DNA from: a candidate division WOR-3 bacterium
Lineage (GTDB): Bacteria; Hydrothermota; Tepidihabitantia; SM23-42; JAOAFX01
Direction: 5' to 3'
Assembly (NCBI GenBank): GCA_037444665.1
Contig: JBBILZ010000006.1
Span: 56 to 64,055, forward strand
DNA: 64,000 nt
The first letter of the stretch is position 1, and each line of letters opens with the position of its first letter. The notes beneath the pieces were generated by a model. The model saw only the letters and a list, made by a program, of their open reading frames with translations. It did not search any database and was not told the DNA's origin. This document shows positions 1 through 21,912 of the stretch, piece after piece. The position numbers and the translations under genes were made by a program.

Positions 1-621
1 TAACACATCAGGGCATCGCCCTTCTTCTTGTTTCAGGTAATTATTAACCTCTTCTACTGGATGGAACGGAATCAGATATCTCAATTTCATTGAAATCGGA
101 AATAATCTCAAAATCCTGCCACCGTCCTCAGTAATAAAATAATTGTTCAAATCATCATTGCTCAACCCTGCATAGAGAAAATGTGTATCATCAAGTAGTG
201 TATAATCAATACCTGATTTTACAAACAAAGGTACCAATCCTGGCTCCCAGACCCGTTCAGTCAACCAGAGACCACGGGCTTCATAGCCGAACATTTTATA
301 AATGTATTCTTTGAAATACTTAATCTGTTCAACCACATCTTGGGATGGAATTAAAGAAAGGATTGGCTCACTATATGCTGAAACCAGAATCTCAGCCTGA
401 TCGTTCTTCAATGCCTCTCTTATGTAATCAAAATATTCAGGATGTTTTTTTGATAACCACTCACAGAGTGGACCTGAATTGTGAATACCAAATTTTATTG
501 AAGGATATTTTAACAATGTCTTAATTAAAGGAAGATATGACTGCTCATAGGCATACTGGAATACTTCATCAAAATTGCCTACGGGTTGATGATTATGTAT
601 ATAAAATGCAAATTTTACCAT
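1..621 (-). CDS. Glycoside hydrolase family 57 protein, N-terminal part (gene continues beyond window start)
   Basis: The reverse-complement translation starts MVKFAFYIHNHQPVGNF and contains ...GLWLTERVWEPG, which are GH57 hallmark regions (H-Q-P and W-x-x-E). ATG at 619-621 with an upstream GGAG. Not in the ORF track because it is truncated by the window edge. Confidence 0.7.
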   Translation of the reverse strand, partial: MVKFAFYIHNHQPVGNFDEVFQYAYEQSYLPLIKTLLKYPSIKFGIHNSGPLCEWLSKKHPEYFDYIREALKNDQAEILVSAYSEPILSLIPSQDVVEQIKYFKEYIYKMFGYEARGLWLTERVWEPGLVPLFVKSGIDYTLLDDTHFLYAGLSNDDLNNYFITEDGGRILRLFPISMKLRYLIPFHPVEEVNNYLKQEEGRCPDVL

Positions 622-1095
622 TTATACTCCTGTTAGTTTTTTTATCACATCAACGGGCTGGGAATTGGGCAGTTGTTTCCCAATAATTTTGATGCCTAAT
701 TCATGTAATTTTGCGAGCACCTCTATATCCTCAGAGGTCAGGTAGATAAATGGAGCGATTGTGCGTGCATTTTGTCTATGGCTCAAACCACCGATATGCA
801 CTTCATTTATGCTCAGACCATTATTTATAAGATTGTAGACATCAATCACCTTTTCTACTACGACCATAATACGCCTTTTGTCCAACCCGTTCTTCAAGTA
901 TTCAACACAACTTTTAATATCAAAACAATGAAAACTTATATTTTCAGGTACGGCAAGCCGATAGGCATTACAGGCCCATTCATCTTGACTGATTGTATCA
1001 GAGGCAATAATCAATTCATTAATGCCAAGGGGTCGTGCCCAACCAGCAACAACCTGGCCATGAATCAATCTATCATCAATGCGTAATACAAACAT
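622..1095 (-). CDS. PTS mannose/fructose/sorbose-family EIIB component
   Basis: VLRIDDRLIHGQV is the signature of type-4 EIIB (phospho-His domain). Its stop abuts the GH57 start at 621/622. Confidence 0.8.
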   Translation of the reverse strand: MFVLRIDDRLIHGQVVAGWARPLGINELIIASDTISQDEWACNAYRLAVPENISFHCFDIKSCVEYLKNGLDKRRIMVVVEKVIDVYNLINNGLSINEVHIGGLSHRQNARTIAPFIYLTSEDIEVLAKLHELGIKIIGKQLPNSQPVDVIKKLTGV

Positions 1096-1096
1096 C

Positions 1097-2776
1097 TTAA
1101 TCCCAGAACTCCCATTTGATTTCTAAATTAAAACTTCTTTCAACATCAGGAAAATCAGCCGGTTTCTGGTCAAGAATATTATCAATCATCATATTCAATT
1201 TCAGGGTCAGGAATTTTATAGTTAAACCCGGAGCAATGGTCCAGAATTGACCATAGTGATTATCTGCGAGGTCATATCTATCTGAAACATAGTTGAATCT
1301 TGTAAACAGGCAAATCACTGAGCGTTCTGTTTTTCTTTGCCAGTTTAAATATAGTTTCGCATTCGTTCTGGGAAAGGTTGAAGATGGTCCATCCTTCAAC
1401 AGATAGTTAAATGCGCCTGCAAAAGAAAAATATCTTGCCAATGGAATATCATAAAATAATTCCAGACCTGCAATCTCACCATTTTCAAAATTTACCACAG
1501 AATAATAATTCGCACTATCCCTGTGATAGCCAATGGGATTTGTAATTGCACAGTGATAAAAATTGAAATTTAAAGTTTTTATCTGAAGACCAGCCTCTTT
1601 GCGAAAATATTTTTCGTCCTTTATATCAGGATTACCCAGTATATTAAAATCTTTAATTGCCAGATTTTCATTACCAAAGTGTGCGATAAAATTGGCTCTT
1701 CTATGGAACAGGCTCAATCCACCAAAAATGCGTATACTATCAAAAATGTCACATTTTATTTTTCCACTTGGATTAAAATATAAATTTTTATCTAATGCAT
1801 AATCTACACTATAAACGAATCCTGTACAAAATTTGTTTAAATTATAATTAATTCCTTGATAAAATTCTAAATTATTATCAGTTTCAAAACTATTAAACCC
1901 ATATTCAAATCTACTCGTTGTAGCATTAAAACCAAAGACATTTCCAATATTTTTATAAGAGAATACCATCTGCTGATTTGTGCCGTATGTGGTCAGGTGA
2001 TTTTGATACCTTACATTACTTAAGGTATCAAGATATTCAGTGCCATTTGCAGTTCTGAAAATGGCAAGTTTATAAAGGTCATTGCCTGCAGTAAATGTTA
2101 TATCACTAAAATCAATACTCCATAATGTTCCATAATCATTATCAGTAAAAATAATATCCAAACGTGAAGGAATGAATTGGTTATAATATATATTCGCATA
2201 ACCACCATTTGTGCGCAGGTAAACTTGCTCATAGTTTTTATACTGCCGTGAATACAAACCACTCAAATAAAATCCGATATCATTGGTAATGGCACGCGTA
2301 AAATCAATGTTATAAATAGTATTGCTACCAAACATAGTAAAATAAAGATAAGAGAATGGTTTTTCATAAGTATTTACTTTGGTATCAATCTCCAGTCTTT
2401 GAAAATTTTTTCCAAACCCATTATTCAACTTTGCTGTCTTTAAAAAGTGTATTGGTAGTAAAACAAGATTGAATGATTCAGTAAAATAATTATTCAAAGA
2501 ATGGGATTGTAAAAATACTTCTAAGGGATATGGCGTAATAATATCAAGGCAATAACCCCGGTCCTTAATAAGATAAGGTGTAAAATTGACAACCTCTTTA
2601 AATCCTGTAAAAAAAAGAACGGGTTCAATGACCCGTGTCTGTTTTAGTGAACTATCAAGCACGCCTGCCTGGCTAAAATTTACGACCGCAGGAACTTCAT
2701 ATTTTTTTACCGAATCAACAACAGATGAATCCTGGGCAATCTCATTGCCAGCTAAAATAAATAACCACAAAAACAC
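1097..2776 (-). CDS. Putative outer-membrane beta-barrel protein (porin-like)
   Basis: 559 aa, N-terminal signal-like segment, and a sequence rich in Tyr/Asn/Gly/Phe with alternating aromatic residues. Transcribed first in an apparent operon with the EIIB and GH57 genes. Confidence 0.4.
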   Translation of the reverse strand: MFLWLFILAGNEIAQDSSVVDSVKKYEVPAVVNFSQAGVLDSSLKQTRVIEPVLFFTGFKEVVNFTPYLIKDRGYCLDIITPYPLEVFLQSHSLNNYFTESFNLVLLPIHFLKTAKLNNGFGKNFQRLEIDTKVNTYEKPFSYLYFTMFGSNTIYNIDFTRAITNDIGFYLSGLYSRQYKNYEQVYLRTNGGYANIYYNQFIPSRLDIIFTDNDYGTLWSIDFSDITFTAGNDLYKLAIFRTANGTEYLDTLSNVRYQNHLTTYGTNQQMVFSYKNIGNVFGFNATTSRFEYGFNSFETDNNLEFYQGINYNLNKFCTGFVYSVDYALDKNLYFNPSGKIKCDIFDSIRIFGGLSLFHRRANFIAHFGNENLAIKDFNILGNPDIKDEKYFRKEAGLQIKTLNFNFYHCAITNPIGYHRDSANYYSVVNFENGEIAGLELFYDIPLARYFSFAGAFNYLLKDGPSSTFPRTNAKLYLNWQRKTERSVICLFTRFNYVSDRYDLADNHYGQFWTIAPGLTIKFLTLKLNMMIDNILDQKPADFPDVERSFNLEIKWEFWD

Positions 2777-2875
2777 CCTGGATTATAGATTAAAATTACC
2801 TTTTTGTCAATAGAAGTTTGCAGAGTTCAAGATATAGTATAGGAGTAGGGACTTTAGTCCTACTCCTCATTGTCC

Positions 2876-3150
2876 ATTTTGTAGTTGCCCGCTTGCAATG
2901 GCGAATTCCCCAATTGTAGTTGCCCGATTTATCGGGCATATCAAATATTCGTTTCCATATTATTTTATCATCATACCTGGTAAAAAATTTGTAGTAATGT
3001 AAAAATGTAGTGGCAGAGTTTACCCTGCCAAATTAAATCAAGCAAAGACATTTTTCTCCATTCCACAATTCCAAAATTGTAAAATAATCAAATGGATAAT
3101 TGCCCTGCAATATGTTATACTTTGCCGATTGGTCAACTACATTGATTTAA
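2876..3150. repeat. Cluster of REP-like elements (GTAG box + GC-rich hairpin), left flank of the accessory island
   Basis: ttGTAGttGCCCGATttATCGGGCat (2909-2939); partial copy ttGTAGttgcccgc (2876-2905); ttGTAGtaatg (2987-3000); atGTAGtgGCAGAGtttaCCCTGCc (3003-3028); inverted copy caatGTAGttgacc (RC of 3137-3150). Near-identical copies occur in opposite orientation at 13239-13342. Confidence 0.6.
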
Positions 3151-3217
3151 TTCCATTTTGGAATGGCTAACCTATTAAGTGTGAAAATTTGACCCAATCC
3201 GAATTATTATTGAAGGA

Positions 3218-3859
3218 CTAAATCCCCTCTGAGTTAGTTCTGGTGAACCACCAGCCGAGACCGATTGTAATACCAGCACCTATTTGAATACCGTAACCGG
3301 CACATGAACTCCAAGCACCATCCTTCCAGTTTTTAATAGCTCCAATACGAACTGTAAATCCCAATGTCAACGGTTTAATGATTTTGTGATTCAGTTCAAC
3401 CGCTCCTGAGGTAAACTTGCCGATATACGCAGAAAACCTCAATCTCACAGTACTCAGCGATAGAATGCTACAATGTAGCACATAGACTGTGTGAATCGAT
3501 ATCATGGATGCATAAAATGCCTTAGGAGAGTACGATACAAATTCGTCATCTACTAATTCCTGTACATTCATGCCGAATCCCCATCTTGAATTTTTTGGGA
3601 AATATGTTACTGTAATAAAACTCATTTCAGCACCATGTTTGATTTGATAAACAAGTGTATCATATGAAGTATAATCAACACGCTTATGATATCCTCCATA
3701 AAGTCCGAACCTAAGAATCTCAATATCCACCACCGGCATTATAACCTTGCGCTCATTCTGCAGTAACTTGTAGTTCTGAGCAGAGGACAGGTGCGCATAT
3801 GACAACACAACCGCAACAATGAACTTAATAATCAACAACCTAATCGAACTGCAACGCAT
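3218..3859 (-). CDS. Small outer-membrane beta-barrel protein, paralog A
   Basis: Signal peptide and beta-rich sequence. It shares a duplicated promoter and upstream element with the gene at 4783-5391. RBS AAGGGG precedes the ATG. Confidence 0.45.
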   Translation of the reverse strand: MRCSSIRLLIIKFIVAVVLSYAHLSSAQNYKLLQNERKVIMPVVDIEILRFGLYGGYHKRVDYTSYDTLVYQIKHGAEMSFITVTYFPKNSRWGFGMNVQELVDDEFVSYSPKAFYASMISIHTVYVLHCSILSLSTVRLRFSAYIGKFTSGAVELNHKIIKPLTLGFTVRIGAIKNWKDGAWSSCAGYGIQIGAGITIGLGWWFTRTNSEGI

Positions 3860-3893
3860 AATACCCCTTACCCCAATCCACTACATATTATGA

Positions 3894-3921
3894 GATTATA
3901 CAAATAATTTTTCCGCTGTCA
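3894..3921 (-). promoter_or_regulatory. Sigma70-type promoter TTGACA-16-TATAAT for 3218-3859
   Basis: Minus-strand sequence reads TTGACAgcggaaaaattatttgTATAAT, near-identical to the promoter at 5487-5514. It is preceded by a conserved element of about 38 nt (3922-3962). Confidence 0.6.
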
Positions 3922-4008
3922 ACTATAAAACAGCTAAATTATGCGGTAAAATGTTAAGCTCTGACCCGGGGCGTGCCTTCACACCATTATGATATTTGTT
4001 CTTAGATT

Positions 4009-4431
4009 TTAAGGCAGCAATAGTTCAATTGTTTGTTTACGGCGTTGGAACAATACATCAACATTTTCAAAAAAGTCTTTCTGCCCAAGTATAAATGAAA
4101 ACCCATGAAAATTAAATTGTCCAAAACCTACCTGGGCTGGTAGTCTATAGGTCCCATGCTCAATATCTATTGTTAATTTATAAATGAATATTTCACCGAG
4201 ACCTCCGATTCCGCTGACGGATTCCTTTGGGCATGAAGATAATGGAACCCCCAAAACTTCACCGATTTCAATCTGACAGAAGCAACGATTAGCACCTGAA
4301 TCGATGAGCGCTTCGACATTCATAAATTTTCCCTCAACGATGATAGTTATAGGAATGATTGGCATTAACTCATACCTGATGGGCGCCTGTGATATTGCAA
4401 TTGATTTATATTTGTATCGAACTTTGTGCAA
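4009..4431 (-). CDS. Retropepsin-like (clan AA) aspartic protease; the true start is probably the internal Met at 4365
   Basis: VEALIDSGANRCF matches the D-S/T-G-A active-site motif of retroviral-type aspartyl proteases. The protein is small and has a single domain. Confidence 0.6.
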   Translation of the reverse strand: MHKVRYKYKSIAISQAPIRYELMPIIPITIIVEGKFMNVEALIDSGANRCFCQIEIGEVLGVPLSSCPKESVSGIGGLGEIFIYKLTIDIEHGTYRLPAQVGFGQFNFHGFSFILGQKDFFENVDVLFQRRKQTIELLLP

Positions 4432-4448
4432 GTTTTATTGGGACTATG

Positions 4449-4646
4449 CTAACAATAAGAGAAGTTGCTGATTTCTTTAGAAACCATAACATAGATGGGA
4501 TTTTTTTCTTTAGTTTTCTGTGAATTTTTTATGGCTTCTGCAAGCGTACGACCAGAAGCGACAACTGTGGATTCATCCGAAGATAGAGCAACCCACTTAC
4601 CCAAATACTTGAGCAACATCTTCCCATAATTGTTATTATTCTTCAT
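4449..4646 (-). CDS. DUF5678-like small protein (65 aa)
   Basis: YLGKWVALSSDESTVVASGRTLAEAIKNS...NPIYVMV resembles the GKWVA...ASG...NP pattern of DUF5678 mini-proteins. It lies immediately upstream of the aspartic protease gene. Confidence 0.45.
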   Translation of the reverse strand: MKNNNNYGKMLLKYLGKWVALSSDESTVVASGRTLAEAIKNSQKTKEKNPIYVMVSKEISNFSYC

Positions 4647-4649
4647 GAA

Positions 4650-4680
4650 ATTATAATAACCATTTTTGGTTAAAAGTCAA
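4650..4680 (-). promoter_or_regulatory. Promoter TTGACT-16-TATTAT placed 6 nt from the ATG (predicted leaderless mRNA)
   Basis: Minus-strand sequence reads TTGACTtttaaccaaaaatggtTATTATaatttcATG. There is no SD, and the TSS is predicted at the A of the ATG. Confidence 0.5.
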
Positions 4681-4782
4681 GGGGCGGTTTTACTGTCGGA
4701 TTTATCTAACAAACAGCCAAAATAGAAAAATTATGTGGTAAAATGTATAATGTTGAGATCTGACCCCCTGACGGCCAAGAAA

Positions 4783-5391
4783 TTAAAACTCATACCATAA
4801 ACCAATTGAAAGATTAAAATCATAAATTGATATAGAAGCACCTACATCAGTAAGCACGGGATGGTTAGTTAGGTTATAATTAAAGGAAAACTCAGGTGAA
4901 ATCCTTAGTTTTGCCATCTTATTTTCCATACCAATACTTGCCGTAAAGTATAAATCGTTTCTGAGTTGTTCAATTGGCCGCTCTGTACCCAATTCTGTAT
5001 CTACTGCTTTACCATATATTTGAAAATTACTACCAATACCAATGCCCAGATAAGGCTTATTGGAAAGTTTTGCAAAGGGTTTAAATGTGGCTGTTATAGG
5101 TATGAACACATTTGTGTAATAACGATTTGTGCCCGGCCAATATTTTCTGATGTATGAACTTGTTTTAATTTGCGGCGTAAAATTGACTTCCCAACATGGA
5201 TTTAGATTAAAACCCATACCAATTCCACCATGCAAACCATTGCCCGAAACATCACTAAATGGTTTATCGTAATCTTCAATACACCAATTTCCTCCAACTT
5301 TTATACCAATATATGTAAGCAATGGCGCTGAAAAACAGAAAGGAAATACACCAATAAATTGAATTATGGTTAATAATATTAGCCTATTCAT
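4783..5391 (-). CDS. Small outer-membrane beta-barrel protein, paralog B
   Basis: Signal peptide, a C-terminus ...GLWYEF ending in an aromatic residue (typical of OMPs), and Gly/aromatic-rich beta strands. Confidence 0.5.
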   Translation of the reverse strand: MNRLILLTIIQFIGVFPFCFSAPLLTYIGIKVGGNWCIEDYDKPFSDVSGNGLHGGIGMGFNLNPCWEVNFTPQIKTSSYIRKYWPGTNRYYTNVFIPITATFKPFAKLSNKPYLGIGIGSNFQIYGKAVDTELGTERPIEQLRNDLYFTASIGMENKMAKLRISPEFSFNYNLTNHPVLTDVGASISIYDFNLSIGLWYEF

Positions 5392-5486
5392 TCTTGGTCC
5401 ACTCCCATCCCCTCTGCATCTAACTTAGCACTGGATTTGCAAGTCATCTTCATATCTCCTTAATTTAATCTACTACTCTATGCTAC

Positions 5487-5514
5487 ATTATACAAACAAT
5501 TTCTCCGCTGTCAA
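5487..5514 (-). promoter_or_regulatory. Sigma70-type promoter TTGACA-16-TATAAT for 4783-5391
   Basis: Minus-strand sequence reads TTGACAgcggagaaattgtttgTATAAT. The conserved upstream element lies at 5527-5575. Downstream, a 21-codon uORF (aaggagatATGaagATGact...) has its stop overlapping the main ATG (ATGA). Confidence 0.6.
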
Positions 5515-5598
5515 GGACAGGATAAAAAATTATGCGGTAAAATGTAAAATGTTAAGATCTGAGCCAAAGGCGTCCAAATTCCAATGTGAATGTGGGAT

Positions 5599-6903
5599 TT
5601 AAGCATCACCTCTATTCACTTCCTGTTCATTTTTATCTTGTTCGTGTTCTAATATTTGTGTCTTTTGGTCACTTTCCAACATTTTTATTTCAGCAATTGA
5701 TGCACCTGCTATACCTTTGATTGAACCATAAAAGTTTACTGCATTAATCAAGATCTTGTCGAGTTGTTTCTCTCGTTCCTTCCATATTTTCTGCATTTTT
5801 AGTTTTTCATCTTGGTAATTGTCTTGCAATGATTTAAAACCTTCAACAATCGCACCGAATTGACCTTTAAATTCTTGGCTTGTTAGATAATTGTAGAGCA
5901 TTTCCATTTTAATCTCTTTTCCATGCTGAGTAATCACAACTGAATGTATTTGTATCAATCCATGTCTAAGTGCAAGAGACAATCCTCTTATTTCAAAAAA
6001 CGAACAAATCCAAACACCATCTTTAAAGAAAAACTTATCTTCTTCTGCGGGCATTGTTTCTGTAACAAGCACCAAAAGATTGGCTTTTACTTCCAGATTG
6101 TCATCCCGCAATTTCTGCAGCCAGTTATAGTCAAAGCTTTTCGTTCGCTTGCTTTCATAATAAATCTTACCACATTCAGCACCGTCTTCATTTTTAACAA
6201 TCTGCAAAACATCGGCACCACGTTGTCCTTTCTTGATCTCCTTAATTTCATCATTAGGATATAACAACTTAAGCATGTTTTCGAGCGCTAATTCCTGAAT
6301 TTCGCCCTGAAGTTGCATAGATCCTTGCTCAGCCTTTCTTTTTGCTGCGCCAAGCTGCTCGGTTAGTTCTTCGATAATTTTGTCCTTTTCCTTGATTTTA
6401 AGGATATTTTCCTCATCAATTTGTTTTGCAATTTTTAACTTTTCGGCCTTTAGTTTCTCACTATATTCCTTTTCTTTCTCTAGAGCAATTTGGTCACGTA
6501 TTTCCTCCTTTTCTCTTTTTAATTTTTCTATTTCTGCCCTTGTCTTGTTTAACTCTTTTACTTGCTCTGATTTTTCCTCAAGTGCTTTTTGTAGTAGTGC
6601 AATTTGATCCGAGGTCTCGCCTTGAATCTCTTCTCGCAATGTCTTTTCTAATTTTAATTTCTCTGCTTTGATTTTGCTCTGAACTTCTGTATCAACAATT
6701 TCTTTGAGTGATTGTCTTTCTTTGTCTATTTTTTCTCTCTCTGTATTTATTTCTTGCAGTTTTAACTGCAGTTCTTTCTCTTTTCTCGCAATTTTTTTCT
6801 CAAAATCTTTTTTTATGTCGTTTTCAATTTGTCCATACAGAGCAGCATTAACATTTATTTCGGTGCCACATTTAGGGCATTTAATTATATTATCATTTTT
6901 CAT
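5599..6903 (-). CDS. Zn-ribbon / long coiled-coil / DUF2130-domain protein (PD-(D/E)xK-like C-terminal domain)
   Basis: N-terminal CPKCG zinc ribbon, about 200 aa of E/K-rich coiled coil, and a C-terminal ...GQRGADVLQIV...GKIYYESKRTKSF... that fits DUF2130 with a D...E-x-K nuclease-like motif. Confidence 0.55.
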   Translation of the reverse strand: MKNDNIIKCPKCGTEINVNAALYGQIENDIKKDFEKKIARKEKELQLKLQEINTEREKIDKERQSLKEIVDTEVQSKIKAEKLKLEKTLREEIQGETSDQIALLQKALEEKSEQVKELNKTRAEIEKLKREKEEIRDQIALEKEKEYSEKLKAEKLKIAKQIDEENILKIKEKDKIIEELTEQLGAAKRKAEQGSMQLQGEIQELALENMLKLLYPNDEIKEIKKGQRGADVLQIVKNEDGAECGKIYYESKRTKSFDYNWLQKLRDDNLEVKANLLVLVTETMPAEEDKFFFKDGVWICSFFEIRGLSLALRHGLIQIHSVVITQHGKEIKMEMLYNYLTSQEFKGQFGAIVEGFKSLQDNYQDEKLKMQKIWKEREKQLDKILINAVNFYGSIKGIAGASIAEIKMLESDQKTQILEHEQDKNEQEVNRGDA

Positions 6904-7020
6904 ATATTCCTCCTGTCACATTTTTCTAATCGGCGATTAAAATGTCATAATTTTAACCTGTAGCTATTATGTGCAATAAGAATTTTAGTAACTATAAGAA
7001 TTAAAATCGCTTTTAAAGTA

Positions 7021-7485
7021 TTATTCATTGTTGTTCATATTTCTTTTGAGGCGGTAATAACGGCGGGTGTAATAAGTCCAGGATTTTGCTGAATCCAATG
7101 ACAACTTATTGTTTACATTTTTTCTGAACATTAATAAACGTCTTATTGTCCTCTCTGAAACTTTTAAATCACGTGCAAAATGCTTGTTGGCATAATTTAA
7201 GAAAAAACCTGTTTTATCTGATATTGTTAGGAACTGCCATAGTTTATCTGCAATATCCCAATAAAGAAAAATTTTCTGTTGATTTGAAGTATTAGTAATT
7301 GCATTTAACTGCTGTTTGCAAAATTCAATAGTCTCCCTATAAAGGTTTTCAAGATGTTCTACTTTTGATGTCAATTCTGTATCGGCTCGTTTTTCTTTTA
7401 ACAGCTCGCTCATTTGAATCTTGGCAACATAAATTATTTCATTATTTTGCTTTCTTGGTTCAATTTCAAAAAATATCTTATCCAT
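7021..7485 (-). CDS. Hypothetical protein (154 aa), translationally coupled to the upstream GHKL ATPase gene
   Basis: Its start at 7485 abuts the GHKL stop at 7486. The segment ...VSERTIRRLL... could be an HTH. No confident family assignment. Confidence 0.4.
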   Translation of the reverse strand: MDKIFFEIEPRKQNNEIIYVAKIQMSELLKEKRADTELTSKVEHLENLYRETIEFCKQQLNAITNTSNQQKIFLYWDIADKLWQFLTISDKTGFFLNYANKHFARDLKVSERTIRRLLMFRKNVNNKLSLDSAKSWTYYTRRYYRLKRNMNNNE

Positions 7486-8997
7486 TTATTTAAGATTACC
7501 CCAATTAGTTAAATATTTATTCAAAATCAGCATCTTATCTTGGTCTTGCGGTAATTCCTTGATAAGAGCAAAACCGATAGCTAAGACATAATGATATGTG
7601 ATCTGCCCAGTTTTTTCGGCAGACTTAAATGCAGGATGTGCCTTGTTGATAAAGACTTTTTCTATTCCTTCAGTCCAACTAATATCTTCTCGTGTTTCAT
7701 CGCTAAGAAAACTTATTGTTGGGCCAAATTTAATGGATCTCGGTCTTTTAGTTATTGGTTGATCAGTGCCGGGTTGTATCAGTGTGTCACCAAAATCTGG
7801 AACTACTGTGGTTCCTGAACCAGAGGCAGTGCCACCGGATTCTTCGCTAACTGGCATTTCTTGCGTCTGACCCTCTACCAATTTAGCAGTATCCTCGCTT
7901 TCTTTAGCTGTTAATAACACATCTTTGACTTGTCTTGCACTATACAATATATGAAGCTCCGGAATATCCGCTATGATTTTACTTACAAGTTTGGTTAAAC
8001 TATTAGTAAGATCTGCATCTTTCTCTTCCTCCACTTTAATTTCTCTTTGACCTATTTCTTCAAGCCATTTGATGAAGTTTTGCTGCGCAATTCTGCTGAA
8101 ACTGTAATATTTTTGTCCACAATAACCATCCTTGCGAAAAGCCGTCTTTGAAGTTACCAAGCAGTCAACGAGTTCGGGAACCTCAATAATACCGGAGATT
8201 TTTTCTGGGTTTTTTGGCTGTTGCTTAAACAATTCTTTTTGCTCGGTATTGATAATCTTCCCAAAGCATGATATTCCGATGCCCTGAAATTCTTCTGCGA
8301 TTGGCTCTTTACACAAAGAAAACTTGCATATTCCAAAAGGTTTCTTTTTTCTTCCCCTTGTTAGGAAAATCCGAGGTGATTCTTTTTCCGTATCAATCGT
8401 GGGCAATTTTATGACATCACCATTTAAAACAAAAGTAACACCAGCCGGGTAAACTTTGGCAAGTTTATAAAAATCCTCAAATAAAAATAGAGGCTGATAG
8501 TGCTTTAACATTATAGATTCAATCTTTTTATCGTCTAAAAGCAAAGATTCTCGGGACTTTAAATATATTCTTACTAATGTTCCTTGTGTATCAATCAAAG
8601 ATGGTTTAATATCTTCCCATTCCGGTTCTTTGCCAACAAATTCCCAATTAGATGTAAATTTGTATTTACCAGTGCAAGTCTCAGTGACAATTTTTTCAGC
8701 AATTCTTAGTGCCAATTTGGCACCCAACCCCGCAAAACCAATTCCTTTGCCTTTTTCTTTGAAGGTCATTGAAAAATTGTGGTAATTTTCAAATTCTTTT
8801 TCATTCATTCCCTTTCCGTTATCTTGTATTTCGAAAACCTTGGACTCTTTATTAGTATTTATTTTAATAACACTTGCCTTTGCATCTAAAGAATTAGCGA
8901 TTGTTTCTACCAAAACTGCTTCTTCAACTGAAAATGGGTACATACCTGCAAGGTCTTCTAAAAAGTGTTGATAATCAGTTGTGCTTTTATGCCTCAT
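7486..8997 (-). CDS. GHKL-superfamily ATPase (HATPase_c_3 / prokaryotic MORC-like)
   Basis: Bergerat-fold motifs are present: E..ANSLDA (N-box), DNGKGM (G1) and GIGFAGLGAK (G2). It lies 2 nt downstream of the Type IIG RM gene on the same strand. Confidence 0.65.
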   Translation of the reverse strand: MRHKSTTDYQHFLEDLAGMYPFSVEEAVLVETIANSLDAKASVIKINTNKESKVFEIQDNGKGMNEKEFENYHNFSMTFKEKGKGIGFAGLGAKLALRIAEKIVTETCTGKYKFTSNWEFVGKEPEWEDIKPSLIDTQGTLVRIYLKSRESLLLDDKKIESIMLKHYQPLFLFEDFYKLAKVYPAGVTFVLNGDVIKLPTIDTEKESPRIFLTRGRKKKPFGICKFSLCKEPIAEEFQGIGISCFGKIINTEQKELFKQQPKNPEKISGIIEVPELVDCLVTSKTAFRKDGYCGQKYYSFSRIAQQNFIKWLEEIGQREIKVEEEKDADLTNSLTKLVSKIIADIPELHILYSARQVKDVLLTAKESEDTAKLVEGQTQEMPVSEESGGTASGSGTTVVPDFGDTLIQPGTDQPITKRPRSIKFGPTISFLSDETREDISWTEGIEKVFINKAHPAFKSAEKTGQITYHYVLAIGFALIKELPQDQDKMLILNKYLTNWGNLK

Positions 8998-8998
8998 C

Positions 8999-11900
8999 TT
9001 ATTCCTCCGTTTTCATTACTTCCTGCCACAGAAGGTGTAGTACTTCACGCTGGGTTTTAGGACTCAAGATAGATAGAACCTCCTCTTCAATGACCTTGTC
9101 AATTTTTTCTCTTAATGCAGATAACTCAGGCAATATTTTTTTAAGATATTTTTCGTCATTGGGAATTTTTATAGTATCTAACCCCATTCCAATAAAATTT
9201 TTGAGATATTCGGCTTCAATTTCAGTTTCACATTCAATAAAAGCATTAGTCCCCCTAAGACGCCACTTAAATAGGTCTTTTTCAATTTTAATTTTTCCTT
9301 CAATTTCGGGTAAAGTTTTTTCATAGCAAGGTTTTGTTAAAATCTTTTCCCTATAGAATCTGCCCAAAGTATTATCGCCAAGTTGTGAGACAAGATTTTT
9401 TACTAACAATTCAATATCTATCCCTTCTTTGCTCTTTTTCTTCTTACCTTTGTCTTTTGCCTTTTTAATACGTGAATTAACTAAATCCACCACTGCCCGA
9501 TAAATCTCAAGTTGTTCTTCATCGGTAAGCCCGAGTATCTCACCCATAATAATTTTATCCAATTCCCTGCGGTCTGGTTTGATTTTGTCTAGTGTTACAT
9601 CTTTAGATTGAGTACTCCCCAGTTCATCAAAAACAGTCCCAAAATCTCTGCTTTTAAATGTTTCAAACATTGCGAGTAGAGTTTTTTTAGTGTTTTCCAA
9701 AATCTTGCGAGGATTTAATACGGGGAGTTTTTCAACTTCATAAACCATGAATCCAGTGGGAGCACCACCTCCTCCATAACTTCTGCCTAAAATATCTGGA
9801 TACAGAAATGCTATAGTTGAGTTAAAATATAACACAATTATCTTATTTATATCATCTACACTACTTTCGCATTCATACAATGTATGATCAACAAAACAAT
9901 TAAACAAATTCAGATGATATTTATAACTCTGTTGAAAGTACATTGTGAAAAGTACCTTGTAAGGATACCATTCTCCCAAATCATACCATCTGTTTCTACT
10001 CGCACAAGTTGGTCTTTTATGATAGCCTTTTCGTTCGCCCCACTGAATATATTTTAAGACATTTGTGCCTTTTAAATCTTTTTTATCTTTATGAATCATC
10101 AGGACTCGGTATTTTAAGTCTTCTGGTTTAACTATGATTGTTTTACATTCCCGGGGGCTTTTAATCACATAATTGGGAACCCAGTTGCCTTTATCGTCCT
10201 TATGCATCCAGAACTCTTTTTCAATTTTCTACTTTTTGATTTCTTCTTCGGTCAGATAGAAAAACTCATTGGCACCGGTTTTGATACCGAATCTCACTTC
10301 TGCAAGTTCCTTTAATGGCAAAAGTTTGTCTTTGCCCTTCTCTAAAATCTTAAAGAAAATCTGCGGCGCCCTTATATATTTGCCCCATTTTGAACCAACA
10401 TATTTCTGTTCTTCTGGGTCAAAGCCTTCGTCCCAGAGTTCTTTTTGTTTTTTGGGAATATTCTCAAATCTTCATTCTCATAAAGCTCATTATGGAAAAG
10501 TATGGTCTTTATTAATTCATCTATTTTGTTAAATCGTTCTTTCTCTTTTGCCCAATTATTAACCAGGGGGGGTATAAAATCCGATAGTTTCTTTTTTAAA
10601 TAAACAAACCTTACTAAATTTTCATCACGTTCCTGTGCATTTTTACATTTCTGAAGAATAACAATGCAGGTGTTAATATCTGCATCCTCAAACCAGCGCT
10701 CAACTTTGGATTCAATGATTGTAACTATCTTATAGTTTTTCAGAAAAAATTCTTGAAGACCCTTACCATAATCCACATCAAGCCAGGAATTGGATACGAT
10801 AAAACCAAAATACCCAGTATCTTTCAAAAATTTTGTGCCGTGGATAAAAAAGTAGGTATGAATACCCGCCCGTTTTGAAATATCGGCAAGTTTTTGATTA
10901 TTTAAAAAAAGCGCCTTTTTTATAAGACTGCCTTTCTCTACGCCAGTCTCTGGAATCTCTTCTTGTCGGGTATAAGGAGGATTACCAACAATGCAATCAA
11001 ACCATCGTGGATAAGTTACTTCTTTACCCATCTTACCGAGGGCTACCGTAACCACCTTACGCCATTTTTCGGGTAGTTCTAAACCCTCGGGTGAAGATAA
11101 TAGGTTAAAGAAGTCATCATGGACAATCATCGGATAATTCTTGTCCACAGATAAATCTCTAATAGCCAGATTTATTGTTGATAGGTGGGCTGGGAATTTA
11201 GCGATATCAACACCCCATAAATCCTTTAAGATTTCCTCATGTTGAAGCATTGAATTCATCAATTTCTTATGTTGATATGCCCTGACTAAAAAAGTTCCTG
11301 CGCCGCAAGCAGGGTCAAGAACTTTGTCCTTTTCATGATGCATACAGAACCTTAAAATAATGTCGACGATATTGGTGTTTGTAAAGTATTGACCCAGATT
11401 ATGACGTTCTTCAGCCGGAATTAACTGTTCAAAAATATAACCGATTATGTCATAAGTTAGATTGGAAAAATTGTAGCGCCTTAATATTTTCACCAAATTT
11501 TTTATTTCTGTTACGACTGCTGCATTATCAGGGAAAGCTAACTCATCAATAAAATCACTTGAATATACGGTCTCGTAGTCTATTTCTAGGACATCATTAA
11601 AATAGTTTTGCAAATGATTCTTAAGTAATCCACCTTTGGTTAAATCATCTGGAATATTTAATGGATCAAGTTTACGCTGTCTTTTAGCCTGAAGTGCATT
11701 ATAAAAGACAATTTTATTAACCAGAAGATAGGCGGTTTGCCGTGCAGCTTTAACAAAGTCTATATCTTGACCATTAAATTCCCATAATTGTTCATTGAAC
11801 CAATTTTTCAATTGCTGGCGAAATTCTTTATTCTTGTGATATTCATCTTCAATGATGACTTTGTAATATCGTGCAAGACGATTGACCTTTTCTTGCAAAC

Positions 11901-12480
11901 GCCAAACCAATAATTGATTTATTTCAATTAAAGGCTCAGATTTTTCCCCGGTGACAAACTGCGCAATATCTAAAATTAATTTCTCCAACCCTGCGTAGAT
12001 GCTGTTACGAAATTTTGGAAGTTCAATTTCATTCAGATCGGCAATCTGAGAAAGTTCATATCTGCCGACCAATTGCTCTTCAATAGGCTTCATCTCATTT
12101 ACTTTAATAGTGTTGAACAAAAAAAGGGACTGGAAATTAGATATCGCAAAATAACGGGCTTTTCTTCGGGCGGCTTTTTTGCGTGCAGGTTCTTTTAAAT
12201 TCTCCTCGTCGTCAGGTTCGTAAAAAGGTGCCTTGAATTCCAAAAGGCAAATAATTTCTTCATCTACCCTGCCTTTATATAATACAACATCGGGACGGGC
12301 GCGGTCACCAGGATGTTTTGTTTCAACTTCAGCAATACCAAGGGGAATATTCTTCTCTTTTATAATTTCATTAATCCATTCCATTATTTTGGCGGTTGCA
12401 GTCCATTCGGTTTTAATGACAAAATCTTCTATGGGACTCGGTGTTCGCTGGGTGCTTTTCAGAAGTTTACTTTTTTTCAT
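8999..12480 (-). pseudogene. MmeI-like Type IIG restriction-modification enzyme (PD-ExK nuclease + gamma-class N6-adenine MTase + TRD), disrupted
   Basis: The N-terminus has RPDVVLY...LLEFKAP (PD-ExK). MTase motif I is DPACGAGTFL and motif IV is GNPPY. After a -1 shift in the A/T homopolymer around 10440-10456, the reading continues as ...ELWDEGFDPEEQKYVGSKWGKYIRAPQ...VRFGIKTGANEFFYLTEEEIKK. An in-frame TAG follows at 10229-10231. The 402-aa downstream ORF (8999-10207) is in the same frame and has a TRD-like sequence. Confidence 0.6.
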
Positions 12481-12820
12481 CTTCCTTTTCTTTTAAGACC
12501 TCTTGAACTATACGGCGGGCGATTTCAAAGGTGGCGGCAATCCTGATAATTTTTACATCACCTAACCCTTTTATTTCAAGAAATTTTTTGAGCGGCTGAC
12601 CGAACATACCACGAAAAGAACCAAATTTTTCTAAAATCTCCTTCGCAATCGTTTCAGCAGATTTACCTTTTATTCCAGAACCAATGATGATTGATAATAA
12701 TTCGGCTTCGGTTAAATGCCCTGCTCCTAAGTCGCGCAATTTACCCCCTGGATGTGTCCAATAGGGGAATTTTGAATCGCGCAAAAGATTAGCTACTATT
12801 TTAGATTTTTTAGATGGCAA
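12467..12820 (-). CDS. radC: RadC-like protein, N-terminal HhH domain only (truncated; the JAB/MPN domain is missing)
   Basis: LTEAELLSIIIGSGIKGKSAETIAKEILEKFGSFRGMF...IKGLGDVKIIRIAATFEIARR matches the RadC N-terminal helix-hairpin-helix region. The ORF ends where the JAB domain should begin, and it overlaps the RM gene start. Confidence 0.6.
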   Translation of the reverse strand: MPSKKSKIVANLLRDSKFPYWTHPGGKLRDLGAGHLTEAELLSIIIGSGIKGKSAETIAKEILEKFGSFRGMFGQPLKKFLEIKGLGDVKIIRIAATFEIARRIVQEVLKEKEDEKK

Positions 12821-12929
12821 AGTATACCTCCACAGTTCTCCATTGATTGCCTCTATTATGCACCAAAAACATCAAAAAGTCAAGGATTTTTTGTGGTATA
12901 TGGGGGTGGGCTTTTGATGGTGTAAAGTA

Positions 12930-13230
12930 GGCGACATTTTTGGTGAGATGCTGAGTGGTTGCGTGAATAGGATAAGTGGAGTAAGTAGTAGGCAGTAGGT
13001 AGTATGTAGTAGGTAGCTCCGCCTTGAAAAGGCGAGAGTTCGCGTCCGAAGGACGGAATAAGTAGTAAGTAGTAAATATCCAGTATCGATTATCAGTTAT
13101 CGAGTATCAAGAAAGCATCAACGCCCAATATAATTAAAATACCTAAAAGTCCAAAATGCCTAAATGCCTAAAAGTTAAAATGCCTAAAAGCCCTAAACCT
13201 GTCCTGAACTCGGTTCAGGATACCTAAAAA
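12930..13230. repeat. GTAG-rich microsatellite-like tract with several short hairpins and ATGCCTAAA(A)G tandem repeats
   Basis: agtaaGTAGtagGcaGTAGGTAGtatGTAGtagGTAG. Hairpins: ccgccttgaaaaggcg, cgtccgaaggacg and cctgaactcggttcagg. atgcctaaa occurs 3 times. Non-coding. Confidence 0.5.
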
Positions 13231-13238
13231 TTTAATCT

Positions 13239-13342
13239 ATGCCCGATGAATCGGGCAACTACAATTGGGAAAATAATCTTACCTACTGATGTTTTATCTT
13301 AGCAGAGTAAACTCTGCCACTACATTGTCGCATTACTACAAT
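13239..13342. repeat. REP-like element cluster (inverted orientation relative to 2909-3028), right flank of the island
   Basis: The RC of 13239-13269 is cccaattgtagttgcccgattcatcgggcat (1 mismatch to 2909-2939). The RC of 13302-13326 is aatgtagtggcagagtttactctgc (matches 3003-3028). The RC of 13331-13341 is ttgtagtaatg. Confidence 0.6.
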
Positions 13343-13393
13343 AATTCAATTAGTTAATTGACTATCGTTACGCAGTCCATTTAGGGATGGTTA

Positions 13394-13426
13394 TTGACTT
13401 TGTGAATTTATTGCATAGAATTCTCT
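13394..13426 (+). promoter_or_regulatory. Promoter TTGACT-16-TAGAAT, 5 nt from the recR ATG (leaderless configuration)
   Basis: TTGACTttgtgaatttattgcaTAGAATtctctATG. Confidence 0.5.
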
Positions 13427-14014
13427 ATGCCCCTTTTAAATGACCTGATTGAAAAACTTCAGTGGTTACCAGGTATTGGTAGAAAAACAGCACAACGACT
13501 CGCCTTTTTTCTTCAGAAAATGGAAGTATCCCAGGTAAAAGAACTCACTGATGCCATCTTAAAGGCAAGATTGGAATTAAAAGAATGCTCAATCTGCCAC
13601 AACCTTGGCGAAACAAATCCCTGTGAAATCTGTGGTTCATCCAACCGAAATAAGGAACAGATATGTGTAGTGGAACAACCCGCAGATGTGATGGTGATAG
13701 AAAAGATTGGTGAGTACAAGGGTCTATACCATATCTTGCACGGCGCCATATCACCGATTGACAATGTCGGTCCTGAAGATTTACGCATCAATAGTTTAAT
13801 AGAAAGGGTAAAAACACAAAATATTAGTGAGGTCATTATCGCTACGAACCCGACAACCGAAGGTGATGTTACTGCATTGTATATTGCTAAATTACTAAAG
13901 CCACTAAATATTAAGGTGACGAGGATTGCCCGTGGACTGCCTATGGGCAGTGACCTCGGACTGGCTGATGGTGTAACGATTTTAAGGTCATTTGAAGGAA
14001 GGCGGGAATTATAA
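13427..14014 (+). CDS. recR: Recombination protein RecR
   Basis: HhH N-terminus, C4 zinc finger (CSICHNLGETNPCEIC) and a Toprim domain. Strong family match. Confidence 0.9.
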   Translation: MPLLNDLIEKLQWLPGIGRKTAQRLAFFLQKMEVSQVKELTDAILKARLELKECSICHNLGETNPCEICGSSNRNKEQICVVEQPADVMVIEKIGEYKGLYHILHGAISPIDNVGPEDLRINSLIERVKTQNISEVIIATNPTTEGDVTALYIAKLLKPLNIKVTRIARGLPMGSDLGLADGVTILRSFEGRREL

Positions 14015-14081
14015 TGATAAACAGATTGTTATTGACTTCAGTCTAAATTTAAGTATAATTAAAGGTTAAAGGAGTAAAATA

Positions 14082-14396
14082 ATGGAATTTCTATATGGAC
14101 AGACATCGGGTCAATCCCAGAGCAATCCGCTTTTCAGTCTTTTGCCATTAATTCTTATTTTTGTTGTTTTTTATTTTCTGCTCATCCTTCCCCAACAAAA
14201 GAAACAGAAACAACACCAGCAATTGCTCAATTCCCTGAAAAAAGGTGACCGTGTCATCACCTCTTCAGGCATATACGGCACAATTGCCAATTTAAAGGAG
14301 AACATTGTTAGTCTGGTAATTGCTGATGGTGTAAAGGTTGACATTGAAAGAAGCCATATTCTTTCAAAGGTTGGCTCTGTAGAGGAAGGCAAGTAA
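14082..14396 (+). CDS. yajC: Preprotein translocase subunit YajC
   Basis: Single TM segment, then LPQQKK...LKKGDRVITSSGIYGTI...GVKV, which is the YajC consensus. Promoter TTGACT-16-TATAAT at 14032-14059 and RBS AAAGGAG. Confidence 0.85.
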   Translation: MEFLYGQTSGQSQSNPLFSLLPLILIFVVFYFLLILPQQKKQKQHQQLLNSLKKGDRVITSSGIYGTIANLKENIVSLVIADGVKVDIERSHILSKVGSVEEGK

Positions 14397-14500
14397 GTAT
14401 TGAATTGATTGTAATTAATGCAATTTTAATAATGGAATTAGAAAAGTATACCTGTGATTAATATGGGATAAATTAATAAAAATTCTTAGGGAAAAATTTT

Positions 14501-14995
14501 ATGACGATAATTAAGTATCCTGAAAAGGTGCTGAGGCAAAAAGCAAAGCCTGTTGATAAAATCACCAGAGAGGTATTTGACCTTGCTGAGGCAATGACAA
14601 CGACGATGCTGGAAAATGAAGGTGTAGGGCTGGCAGCAAATCAGGTTGGCAGTCTAATCAATCTATTTATTATAAACTTAAAGCCCTTTGATGATAAACC
14701 TGAACCGATTGTGGCTATTAATCCAAGAATAATTAAACAAAATGAACCCGAAGAGGATGAAGAGGGTTGCCTCAGTTTTCCAGGATTATTTCTTCACATC
14801 CCACGGTATAAATATATTGTGCTCCATTACCAGAATCTCTATAACGAAAAGATAATCATAGAGGCTGAAGGCATTGTTGCCCGTGCAATCCAGCACGAAT
14901 ATGACCACTTAAATGGTGTTCTTTTTATTGATTATGTTGCAGAAAAAGAAAAGGAAAGATTGAATGAGTATCTTTCAAATCTGAACATAGTATGA
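14501..14995 (+). CDS. def: Peptide deformylase
   Basis: Motifs GVGLAANQVG, EGCLSFPG and QHEYDHLNG. Confidence 0.9.
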   Translation: MTIIKYPEKVLRQKAKPVDKITREVFDLAEAMTTTMLENEGVGLAANQVGSLINLFIINLKPFDDKPEPIVAINPRIIKQNEPEEDEEGCLSFPGLFLHIPRYKYIVLHYQNLYNEKIIIEAEGIVARAIQHEYDHLNGVLFIDYVAEKEKERLNEYLSNLNIV

Positions 14996-15912
14996 AGATT
15001 GTATTCTTTGGCTCTACTGATTTTTCTCTACCCATCGTTAAAAAAATCTCAGAACAATATGAACTATTTGGTGTTGTAATTTCAAAACCAAAACCCAAGG
15101 GCAGGGGCTTAAAAATTGAATTGTCTGAAATCGGAAAATGGGCGATGGAAAAAAATATAAAAATATTTGACCCTGAAAATCCTAATGACCCTTCATTTAT
15201 AAAAACATTATCTGAACTCCAGCCTGACCTGTTTGTGCTCTCTGCGTATGGTTATATCCTGAGCAGTGAACTGCTCAGAGTGCCAAAATTTGGTGGCATA
15301 AATATCCACCCCTCACTTTTACCCAAATATCGTGGTGCAGCACCTATTCAAAGGGCAATAATGGCGGGTGAAAAGATTACTGGTGTAACCATCTTTTTTA
15401 TGGACGAAAAGATTGACCATGGCAGACTTCTGATGAAAAAGGAACTCACAATTGATGAAAATGAAACCTATGGTTCATTATCAAATCGCTTATCCCTACT
15501 CGGCGCAGAAATTATTAATGAAGCAATTAAAAAGATTGAAACTGCTGATTACACCTTGATTGAGCAGGATGAATCTGAAAGGACCTATGCCGGAAAAATT
15601 AAAAAAGAGGAAATGTTTATTAACTGGTCAGATTCCAGTGAAAAGATACATAATTTAGTCCGCGCCCTGAATCCCAGCCCTGGTGCACGAACTATATTTC
15701 GGAATAAAGAATTGATTATTCTTGAAACCGAAATTGGCGACAAAAAAATTGAACCAGGTGTATGCAGTATTGTAGATAAAAATCTTTATGTGGGCACTGG
15801 TGATGGTTCAATAATTATCAAACTTTTAAAACCAGAAAATCGCCGTGCAATTACAGCACGGGATTTTATTAATGGATTTCGTATAAAGACCGGTGAAAGG
15901 ATTGACCAATGA
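14992..15912 (+). CDS. fmt: Methionyl-tRNA formyltransferase
   Basis: The formyltransferase N-domain contains SLLPKYRGAAPIQ. The gene overlaps def by 4 nt. Confidence 0.9.
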   Translation: MKIVFFGSTDFSLPIVKKISEQYELFGVVISKPKPKGRGLKIELSEIGKWAMEKNIKIFDPENPNDPSFIKTLSELQPDLFVLSAYGYILSSELLRVPKFGGINIHPSLLPKYRGAAPIQRAIMAGEKITGVTIFFMDEKIDHGRLLMKKELTIDENETYGSLSNRLSLLGAEIINEAIKKIETADYTLIEQDESERTYAGKIKKEEMFINWSDSSEKIHNLVRALNPSPGARTIFRNKELIILETEIGDKKIEPGVCSIVDKNLYVGTGDGSIIIKLLKPENRRAITARDFINGFRIKTGERIDQ

Positions 15913-17165: not shown

Positions 17166-17178
17166 TTAAAATTTAATA

Positions 17179-17207
17179 TTGACTTTTCAGTAGATTTGAA
17201 TTATAAT
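17179..17207 (+). promoter_or_regulatory. Promoter TTGACT-17-TATAAT, 8 nt before the ATG at 17216
   Basis: TTGACTtttcagtagatttgaatTATAATtcagtattATG. Confidence 0.5.
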
Positions 17208-17215
17208 TCAGTATT

Positions 17216-21886: not shown

Positions 21887-21912
21887 AATGAACCCATTCA
21901 TTAAAAAAGCAG

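Follow-up and report, generated by a model that had tools for sequence, protein, structure and literature searches.

Repetitive extragenic palindromic (REP) sequences tagged with GTAG, together with the REP-associated tyrosine transposases (RAYTs), are an established kind of element (PMC3733652). MORC-like GHKL ATPases in restriction-modification (RM) operons are likewise a published theme, with neighbourhoods that mostly hold superfamily 2 (SF2) helicases and cytosine methylases (PMC2292703), and the published contexts of RadC concern proteins with a helix-hairpin-helix (HhH) and a JAB domain, including fusions to the anti-restriction protein ArdC (PMC3239186). In this study I analyse a stretch of 64,000 nucleotides (nt) from a candidate division WOR-3 bacterium (GenBank assembly GCA_037444665.1, contig JBBILZ010000006.1, positions 56 to 64,055; hereafter the window), in which a type IIG RM operon, a short radC-like gene and inverted REP modules lie within one segment of 10.6 kb. 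I consider it probable that this segment is a strain-variable accessory defence island in a hotspot between core genes, that the REPs are colonists of its ends, and that the short gene is an intact member of the UPF0758_N family which leads the RM operon.

Relatives were found through a search for RecR homologues, after which their contigs were fetched and gene maps and junction sequences were compared. In nucleotide alignments, window 2819-13392 (10,574 nt) is an insertion with respect to three successively more distant sets of relatives, because L194, L197/L198 and L199 all join the counterpart of window 2818 to that of 13393. In L194 (RecR 96% identical), positions 6759-9576 correspond to window 1-2818 at 91.1% nucleotide identity and positions 9651-18158 to window 13393-21900 at 94.5%, with 74 nt between both blocks. 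The same two breakpoints are observed in L197/L198 (75-80% nucleotide identity, about 11 unaligned nt between the blocks) and in L199 (70-75%, about 50 unaligned nt), and in all these relatives a gene of 557-561 amino acids (aa) and recR are immediate divergent neighbours. The island sits between the back-to-back promoters of two conserved divergent core genes, the 559-aa gene and recR, and starts just beyond the last element of the left flank, the -35 box of the 559-aa gene:

2819 to 13392, no strand: the island, absent from L194, L197/L198 and L199.
2777 to 2818, minus strand: conserved left flank with the promoter of the 559-aa gene (TTGACA-17-TATAAT, 2810-2782); homology to the empty sites stops at 2818.
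13393 to 13426, plus strand: conserved right flank with the recR promoter (TTGACT-16-TAGAAT, 13394-13421); homology to the empty sites restarts at 13393.

Several states occur in the spacer between the 559-aa gene and recR, which makes it a hotspot: L195/L196 (RecR 92% identical) have, ahead of the recR promoter, a different and unrelated sequence at least 365 nt long. This third state covers L195:1-365 and L196:1-344, where both contigs end. In L098 (recR 76% nucleotide identity) synteny is lost on both sides, which makes it of no use as an empty site. The 74-nt spacer of the empty site in L194 (9577-9650) contains GTTATCCACACATAAACTGTGGATTAA, which reads as two inverted DnaA-box-like 9-mers, and gene orientation and GC skew in the window change sign around 12-13 kb. 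A first-pass annotation of the window had described a horizontally acquired defence island of about 10.4 kb at 2876-13342. The empty sites, with their conserved flanks, bear out a strain-variable insertion of defence-type genes, but the true borders are 2819 and 13392, and neither repeat-marked borders nor a compositional contrast held up.

The same genes in the same place were found in one sister strain only, L002, whose RecR N-terminus is 98% identical to that of the window and where the island adjoins recR too. L002:342-7774 corresponds to window 12915-5489 at 94.8%, and L002:1-306 to window 13689-13384 at 96.1%. The last 9 island nt before the recR promoter (GGGATGGTT) are common to both, which gives the shared junction GGGATGGTT/ATTGACTTT. 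As the island is present in the window and in L002, it is older than their split. The similarity ends at window 5489, inside the promoter cassette of gene 4783-5391.

The right part of the island holds the following genes:

12855 to 12883, minus strand: promoter of the UPF0758_N-RM operon (TTGACT-17-CATAAT, promoter scan), conserved in L002.
12467 to 12820, minus strand: stand-alone UPF0758_N protein (the N-terminal HhH domain of RadC), 117 aa, complete; overlaps the start of the RM gene by 14 nt.
8999 to 12480, minus strand: Eco57I/MmeI-like type IIG RM gene, disrupted (N6_Mtase/Eco57I; PADLOC REase_MTase_IIG, 3.7e-39).
7486 to 8997, minus strand: GHKL ATPase (HATPase_c_3, 1.1e-14; MORC/paraMORC-like).
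7021 to 7485, minus strand: 154-aa protein with no family match, which closes the four-gene operon; L121 and L134 have a homologue behind the GHKL gene.
5599 to 6903, minus strand: DUF2130 protein, 434 aa (2.5e-56).

The first of these genes had been read as a radC cut down to its HhH domain. UPF0758_N (PF20582, 1.4e-16, residues 23-92) is the sole domain of the 117-aa product, but the best 120 of 1,163 homologues are equally short (all 96-127 aa, PF20582 only), and a JAB/MPN domain is absent from the window protein and from these 120. With a gene that is likewise short in relatives, the truncation reading fails. Since the homologues have no JAB domain and the next codons lie in the RM gene, the short gene is neither RadC nor a fragment of it; the idea of a truncation remnant with the JAB part elsewhere in the island was rejected as well, the family being naturally short. 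Judged by its homologues, the 117-aa protein is complete and belongs to a conserved stand-alone family whose genes come first in RM operons. Homologues with 65-88% identity occur in WOR-3, Cloacimonadota, Nitrospirota, Desulfofervidus and others, and an alignment of 30 sequences shows 39 invariant columns and a W-HPGGKLR motif. The protein resembles RadC/UPF0758 in its N-terminal HhH domain PF20582 and in its recurring restriction and anti-restriction contexts, whereas it differs in having no JAB domain and in its own W-HPGGKLR motif, and its gene lies ahead of fused RM genes instead of within the anti-restriction modules that mobile elements carry.

The first three loci inspected all have the HhH gene in front of an Eco57I/MmeI-like enzyme of 1031-1164 aa. 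A metagenome scan returned 538 relatives, from which 80 loci were analysed, 77 of them with at least 300 nt downstream. An RM homologue is found on the same strand no more than 150 nt downstream in 48 of these 77 loci; here the typical gaps, from -16 to +35 nt and often with an overlap of the two genes, imply translational coupling. Eight further loci have one at a distance of up to 700 nt, which brings the total to at least 56 of 77. In at least two of these eight, L129 and L144, an 80-aa open reading frame (ORF) and a 137-aa ORF intervene before the RM gene, the 137-aa ORF of L129 encoding a PIN-domain protein. From the other loci eight large downstream ORFs were sampled, and six of these encode other methyltransferase-fused proteins, including N6_N4_Mtase proteins (848 and 772 aa), a Type ISP enzyme (7e-93) and further Eco57I-type proteins, while the remaining two are a protein with no family match (L132) and an AbiEi-like protein (L117). 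About 13 of 64 dereplicated UPF0758_N loci (for example L123, L124, L133, L145, L152 and L165) share the promoter TTATTGACCATA-N17-TATAAAATTAGGC, which suggests that the UPF0758_N-RM module travels with its own promoter. A conserved palindromic operator upstream of the HhH genes was not found; what is shared, in a subset, is this promoter.

From these gene orders, the HhH protein may be inferred to be a DNA-binding partner or regulator of the RM enzyme, and as a translationally coupled protein it could serve as a DNA-loading subunit or as a regulator. Its AlphaFold model is all-helical (pLDDT, the predicted local confidence, 78), and the best PDB matches, which are non-significant (E 0.5-1), are (HhH)2 DNA-binding domains of XPF, Hef and LigA. 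As a tentative and somewhat doubtful generalisation, I propose that the HhH protein (about 100-125 aa, W-HPGGKLR, 65-88% identical across phyla) is a near-obligatory, unrecognised partner of a large class of single-polypeptide RM enzymes (type IIG, Type ISP and N6_N4_Mtase fusions). The controller (C) proteins known from type II RM systems are small helix-turn-helix DNA-binding proteins with C-box operators. The HhH protein may be likened to them as a small protein of DNA-binding type that lies upstream of, and is co-transcribed with, a restriction gene, a likeness that I offer as a lead only; it differs in its fold, and in that its loci show only the shared promoter in about 13 of 64 and no palindromic operator. 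An incomplete search of the literature on UPF0758/RadC with type IIG enzymes or defence islands, which counts as weak evidence, and a likewise incomplete one on DUF2130 with defence, gave no description of an HhH-RM pairing.

The order HhH, RM, GHKL (501-503 aa) and 151-154-aa protein, with gaps of 1-5 nt, is found in the window, L002, L134, L121 and L172; the gap between RM and GHKL is 1 nt in the window and 4-5 nt in L134, L121 and L172. The RM product matches N6_Mtase (1.5e-23), Eco57I (3.9e-22), MmeI_Mtase (2.9e-10) and M_Eco57I_C (7.5e-7), and the PADLOC match to REase_MTase_IIG covers residues 61-661, so the methyltransferase and specificity regions are predicted to be fused with the N-terminal region. 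Similarity to MmeI in the PDB is marginal (3.4e-4). The enzyme resembles the type IIG enzymes (MmeI/Eco57I-like) in combining a gamma-class N6-adenine methyltransferase and an Eco57I-type C-terminal region in one polypeptide, with a HATPase_c_3 ATPase encoded directly downstream. It differs from the known type IIG/MORC operons in the small HhH gene ahead of the enzyme, and in that the gene here is a pseudogene. The DUF2130 gene is common to the window and L002 and was not found near any of the 80 other UPF0758_N loci; it is specific to the lineage of the window. PADLOC gave no match for the GHKL, 154-aa, DUF2130 and HhH genes, and sequence searches of the PDB with the DUF2130 and GHKL proteins were uninformative.

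The broken state of the RM gene had been overlooked in the first-pass annotation. Intact homologues are 1159-1164 aa long, and the intact enzymes of L003 and L004 match window 12441-9011 across two reading frames. Relative to L002, the gene of the window has one T missing at about 10458/10459 and a TAG at 10232-10230 for the TGG of L002. The gene of L002 is broken by another frameshift, T8 for T7 at window 12126, a run that could reflect phase variation or decay. The ratio of nonsynonymous to synonymous substitutions (dN/dS) between the window and L002 lies at 0.06-0.13 in the pieces of the RM gene and at 0.13-0.28 in the other genes; given these low values, the lesions in the RM gene are either recent or consensus errors.

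The REP modules and related sequences of the window are the following:

2841 to 2867, no strand: near-perfect palindrome AGGAGTAGGGAC-TTTA-GTCCTACTCCT with GTAG on both strands, a further REP-like hairpin, read directly.
2880 to 2905, plus strand: degenerate REP head (TGTAGTTGCC...) that has lost its folding (fold analysis).
2906 to 2940, plus strand: REP module A, TGTAG-TTGCCCGA-TTTA-TCGGGCA; DNA hairpin of -7.8 kcal/mol, z -4.1.
2989 to 3040, plus strand: REP module B, a headless TTGTAGTAATG followed by TGTAG-TGGCAGAG-TTTA-CCCTGCCA (pattern, fold).
About 12952 to 13384, no strand: non-coding segment of 433 nt, absent from the island of L002, with the right REP cluster, arrays and several hairpins.
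13238 to 13272, minus strand: inverted copy of module A; hairpin of -7.8 kcal/mol, z -4.9.
13290 to 13341, minus strand: inverted copy of module B (pattern, fold).
27055 to 27108, plus strand: third REP site, outside the island, TGTAG-TTGCCTCA-TTTA-TGAGGCA with a module-B-like remnant before it.

Near-identical modules at both ends of the island, reverse-complemented at the right, had been noted before, and exact matches are indeed found at these places. The pattern for module A (TTGTAGTTGCCCGATTYATCGGGCA) matches at 2914-2938 (plus strand) and 13240-13264 (minus strand), and that for module B (AATGTAGTGGCAGAGTTTACYCTGC) at 3004-3028 (plus strand) and 13302-13326 (minus strand), in both cases two matches against 0.00 expected from 100 shuffles. 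The extended inverted repeats measure 35 nt at 94% identity for A and 52 nt at 85% for B. On the plus strand the order is A followed by B at both ends, so that the modules are inverted individually and the clusters are not mirror images. Each module consists of TGTAG, a G+C-rich stem of 7-8 bp, a TTYA loop and the complementary arm; the DNA folds range from -5.1 to -7.8 kcal/mol, with z from -4.1 to -4.9 for the A type and from -1.9 to -3.0 for B, and TGTAG precedes the stem in all five clear REPs of the window. Module B resembles a terminator when taken on the minus strand (3030-3011 with a T run), where it lies downstream of gene 3218-3859, the last one of the island. Rfam at gathering thresholds gave 0 matches over the whole window, and the modules are therefore not a known RNA family.

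A search for the modules beyond the ends of the island recovered the third site and, as described below, the family in many genomes, and it does not support the role as borders that had been ascribed to them. The third site, overlooked earlier, lies around 27,082 in the divergent spacer between the core genes 26094-26981 (minus strand) and 27204-28241 (plus strand), and its stem has compensatory changes, CCTCA/TGAGG in place of CCCGA/TCGGG; REPs thus occupy three separate spacers in the 64-kb window. The 433-nt segment contains the arrays (AGTAGGT)x5 at 12980-13016 and (AAATGCCT)x7 at 13137-13197. Within the same 433 nt lies (TAAGTAG)x2 at 13059-13075, and together with (AGTAGGT)x5 it supplies seven GTAG heads without hairpins. 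As the island of L002 has no such segment, the right REP cluster is a secondary indel inside the island. Because REPs are dispersed in core spacers and in many genomes, and because the right cluster is absent from the island of L002, they are, going by their distribution, colonists of the non-coding ends of the island and not its termini.

By their sequence and company, the modules belong to a RAYT-associated family of REP hairpins headed by GTAG. A scan of one genome per species with ATTGTAGTTGCC-N10-GGCAT yielded at least 107 loci of the family, with many copies per genome, in Poribacteria, Zixibacteria, WOR-3, Ignavibacteria, Elusimicrobia, Dehalococcoidia and one metagenome-assembled genome (MAG) from Clostridia; the WOR-3 MAG SLS170214_bin_26 has at least nine copies on six contigs. 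Among 87 copies of the family, all with the TGTAG head, the ten unconstrained bases read xyATTYATy'x'. Complementary stems are kept in 81 of the 87 copies in five variant forms, the variable pairs being CG/CG in 29, TG/CA in 20, CA/TG in 20, TC/GA in 11 and CC/GG in 1. A single 27-mer family (TGTAGTTGCC-xyATTYATy'x'-GGCA) is thus observed in multiple copies in MAGs of at least seven phyla.

The transposase gene, rayT, was detected with E. coli RayT as a tblastn query; unbiased clustering of the ORFs beside REPs had missed it. ORFs of about 137 aa lie directly beside REPs in two Zixibacteria and one Dehalococcoidales MAG, and a partial match ends one Ignavibacteria locus. Three full-length ORFs (L010, L011 and L075) match Pfam Y1_Tnp at 7e-14 to 7.6e-7 and have REPs on both sides, and the one that was searched against the PDB, that of L011, has TnpA-REP 4er8 as best match (9.9e-9). 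Relatives of this transposase family number 1,494; they include WOR-3 proteins, and JGI gives several the name RayT. In L201-L205 the WOR-3 rayT genes are flanked by REPs of the window type (for example TTGTAGTTGCCCGAtttaTCGGGC), with four to eight REPs on each side in L204 and L205. A REP-like hairpin (ATGTAGTTGCTCAAtttaTTGAGCA) also occurs inside the rayT coding sequence at L201:3133 and L204:3118, which are different WOR-3 loci. The commonest protein family beside REPs consists of large proteins with a common C-terminal tail, read by eye as a type IX secretion sorting tail (for example L022, L048, L055, L072, L086, L104 and L109), and REPs frequently lie just 3' of the genes that bear it.

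The likeness to the REP/TnpA-REP system of E. coli (PMC3733652) lies in the 5' GTAG head beside a short G+C-rich hairpin, in extragenic, multi-copy and often inverted-paired occurrence, and in a single transposase gene of the Y1/HUH type (about 137 aa) flanked by the same REPs, with 4er8 as best PDB match. However, the RAYT here is 137 aa long against 165 aa in E. coli, the hosts are mostly outside the phyla listed in that survey, and a near-identical 27-mer with only two covarying stem positions is common to several phyla. Near-identical REPs across phyla suggest transfer of the whole RAYT/REP system, and a lesser reading of these data would be that a single RAYT/REP family, its 27-mer almost unchanged, has come to occupy at least seven bacterial phyla.

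Four explanations compete with an island colonised by REPs. The first holds that the REP clusters were imported together with the island from a donor that carried the family, and not added by a resident RAYT. The concentration of REPs in the island is in its favour, as is the absence of REPs from about 100 kb of homologous sequence in relatives; however, the homologous parts of the window hold none either, which makes that comparison uninformative. Against it stand also the core-spacer location of the copy at 27,082, the indel status of the right cluster inside the island, and the breaks of assemblies at REP A, which imply further genomic copies. I regard such a joint import as improbable.

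The inverted clusters might also be functional termini, the segment having been moved as a unit by a RAYT or inserted by REP-to-REP recombination, in the manner of a rayT gene between inverted REPs. Four of the five REPs in the 64 kb do lie in inverted orientation within about 60-200 nt of the two junctions, and rayT genes are flanked by REPs in the same manner. Against this, L002 keeps the same junction on the recR side without the right cluster, the module order is not mirrored between the clusters, and no rayT was found in the island or the window (tblastn, best E 4). Furthermore, none of the 80 other UPF0758_N-RM loci adjoins recR, the island is a mosaic of separable modules, and RAYTs are not known to move cargo, all of which makes this explanation slightly harder still to accept than a joint import.

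Under a third possibility, the relatives lost an ancestral region and nothing was acquired. This agrees with the presence of the region in both the window and L002, which puts it before their split, and with a composition that matches the host. However, all three sets of relatives, at 94%, 80% and 75% identity and thus at growing distance, lack it and have intact back-to-back promoters with differing short spacers, L195/L196 have yet another unrelated sequence at the site, and the RM module is found in dozens of unrelated contexts; I consider this possibility very unlikely. That the contig was mis-joined at repeats and the island belongs elsewhere is scarcely credible, for although short-k contigs end at REP A on both sides, L002 independently joins recR to the UPF0758_N-RM operon without any REP, and the two A copies share an exact stretch of fewer than 31 nt, short enough for assemblers with larger k to be able to read through.

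The contigs in question are two independent short-k contigs of the window's own strain, the Logan contigs L001, which starts exactly at REP A (13240), and L200, which ends at about 2911; from these breaks, further REP copies probably exist elsewhere in the genome.

Several points weigh against the picture of a colonised defence island led by an intact UPF0758_N gene. The left junction is backed by the window contig only, as the short-k assemblies break there, and the REP copy number and rayT content of the source genome are judged on the 64-kb window only. Four of the five clear REPs of the window lie at the island ends, which makes some link between REPs and the hotspot possible. The lesions of the RM gene may be consensus errors of the MAG, PADLOC recognises no other island gene than RM except for a weak match to PDC-M52B, and the role of the HhH protein is taken from gene order only, a Foldseek search of its model against the PDB having given nothing significant.

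Even so, an accessory island with REPs as later settlers remains the reading that I prefer, and its history could be as follows. Homologous recombination within the core genes on either side would have brought the island in, since Pfam domains of integrases, transposases or recombinases are absent from the ORFs of the island, the 64-kb window contains no tRNA, and the junctions show no target duplication. Its right 7.4 kb contains an RM operon, composed of the HhH protein as translationally coupled first gene, the fused type IIG enzyme, the MORC-like GHKL ATPase and the 154-aa protein, with a separate DUF2130 gene after it, and its left 2.7 kb has small genes, among them a DUF5678/retropepsin-like pair, that follow repeated strong promoters. 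The REP hairpins would be substrates of a RAYT (HUH/Y1) transposase acting in trans, and would have taken up places in the non-coding stretches at the island ends, just as in other spacers, one of them now being terminator-like.

Composition shows no contrast between island and surroundings. The GC content is 0.357 inside and 0.366 outside, the ranges of GC at third codon positions overlap, and the tetranucleotide distance of the island barely exceeds that of outside windows, which is too weak to call. The island resembles defence islands in core-gene hotspots in its presence and absence between conserved flanks, its RM and candidate defence genes, its alternative contents and its lack of mobility genes, whereas it differs from them in being small (10.6 kb), in its precise position between divergent promoters, in its inactivated main system and in the lack of a compositional signal.

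The left part of the island has four small genes:

4783 to 5391, minus strand: 202-aa protein with a weak match to the OMP_b-brl beta-barrel family (20.9 bits against a cut-off of 28.7); perfect promoter at 5514-5487.
4449 to 4646, minus strand: 65-aa DUF5678 protein (9e-6), paired with the retropepsin-like gene.
4009 to 4431, minus strand: 140-aa retropepsin-like protein (PADLOC PDC-M52B, 4.8e-7; Pfam Asp_protease_2, 0.005, below cut-off).
3218 to 3859, minus strand: 213-aa protein with no family match in Pfam; perfect sigma-70 promoter at 3922-3895.

These genes are separated by repeated cassettes at 3866-3957, 4726-4778 and 5458-5577, which consist of perfect TTGACA-16-TATAAT promoters and a shared upstream element. 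The divergence from L002 at 5489, inside such a cassette, suggests cassette-mediated shuffling. As to the gene content given in the first-pass annotation, the DUF2130, GHKL, type IIG RM and DUF5678 assignments stand and the retropepsin is weak, but its pair of outer-membrane protein (OMP) paralogs was rejected, as the two genes show no similarity to each other (BLASTP E 0.07) and there is a single, sub-threshold match to OMP_b-brl. Nor was GH57 confirmed for the left flanking gene: the 559-aa ORF has no Pfam match, and GH57 is the next gene but one in relatives. On the right, a Roadblock/LC7 gene followed by that of a 634-aa protein is found at window 17216-19524 and downstream; the latter protein matches a DnaA-type ATPase domain in two stretches and has further AAA-family matches. 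This block is conserved in all relatives examined, where a PatA_N/TPR protein and cheR-cheD-cheB are found downstream.

In itself, the island is an ordinary hotspot island with ordinary REPs, albeit in a lineage from which no REPs had been described. The HhH-RM partnership is possibly undescribed. For annotation, 'truncated radC' is a trap, and short UPF0758_N genes are not to be labelled as fragments of RadC. The coupling of HhH and RM genes across phyla predicts a missing component of these RM systems, one that could account for unsuccessful attempts at expressing or characterising the enzymes on their own. The RAYT/REP family, in turn, extends REP biology to WOR-3, Zixibacteria, Poribacteria and others, and explains the recurrent contig breaks in assemblies of those hosts; its spread across phyla, if true, would point to recent transfer of a REP system between phyla.

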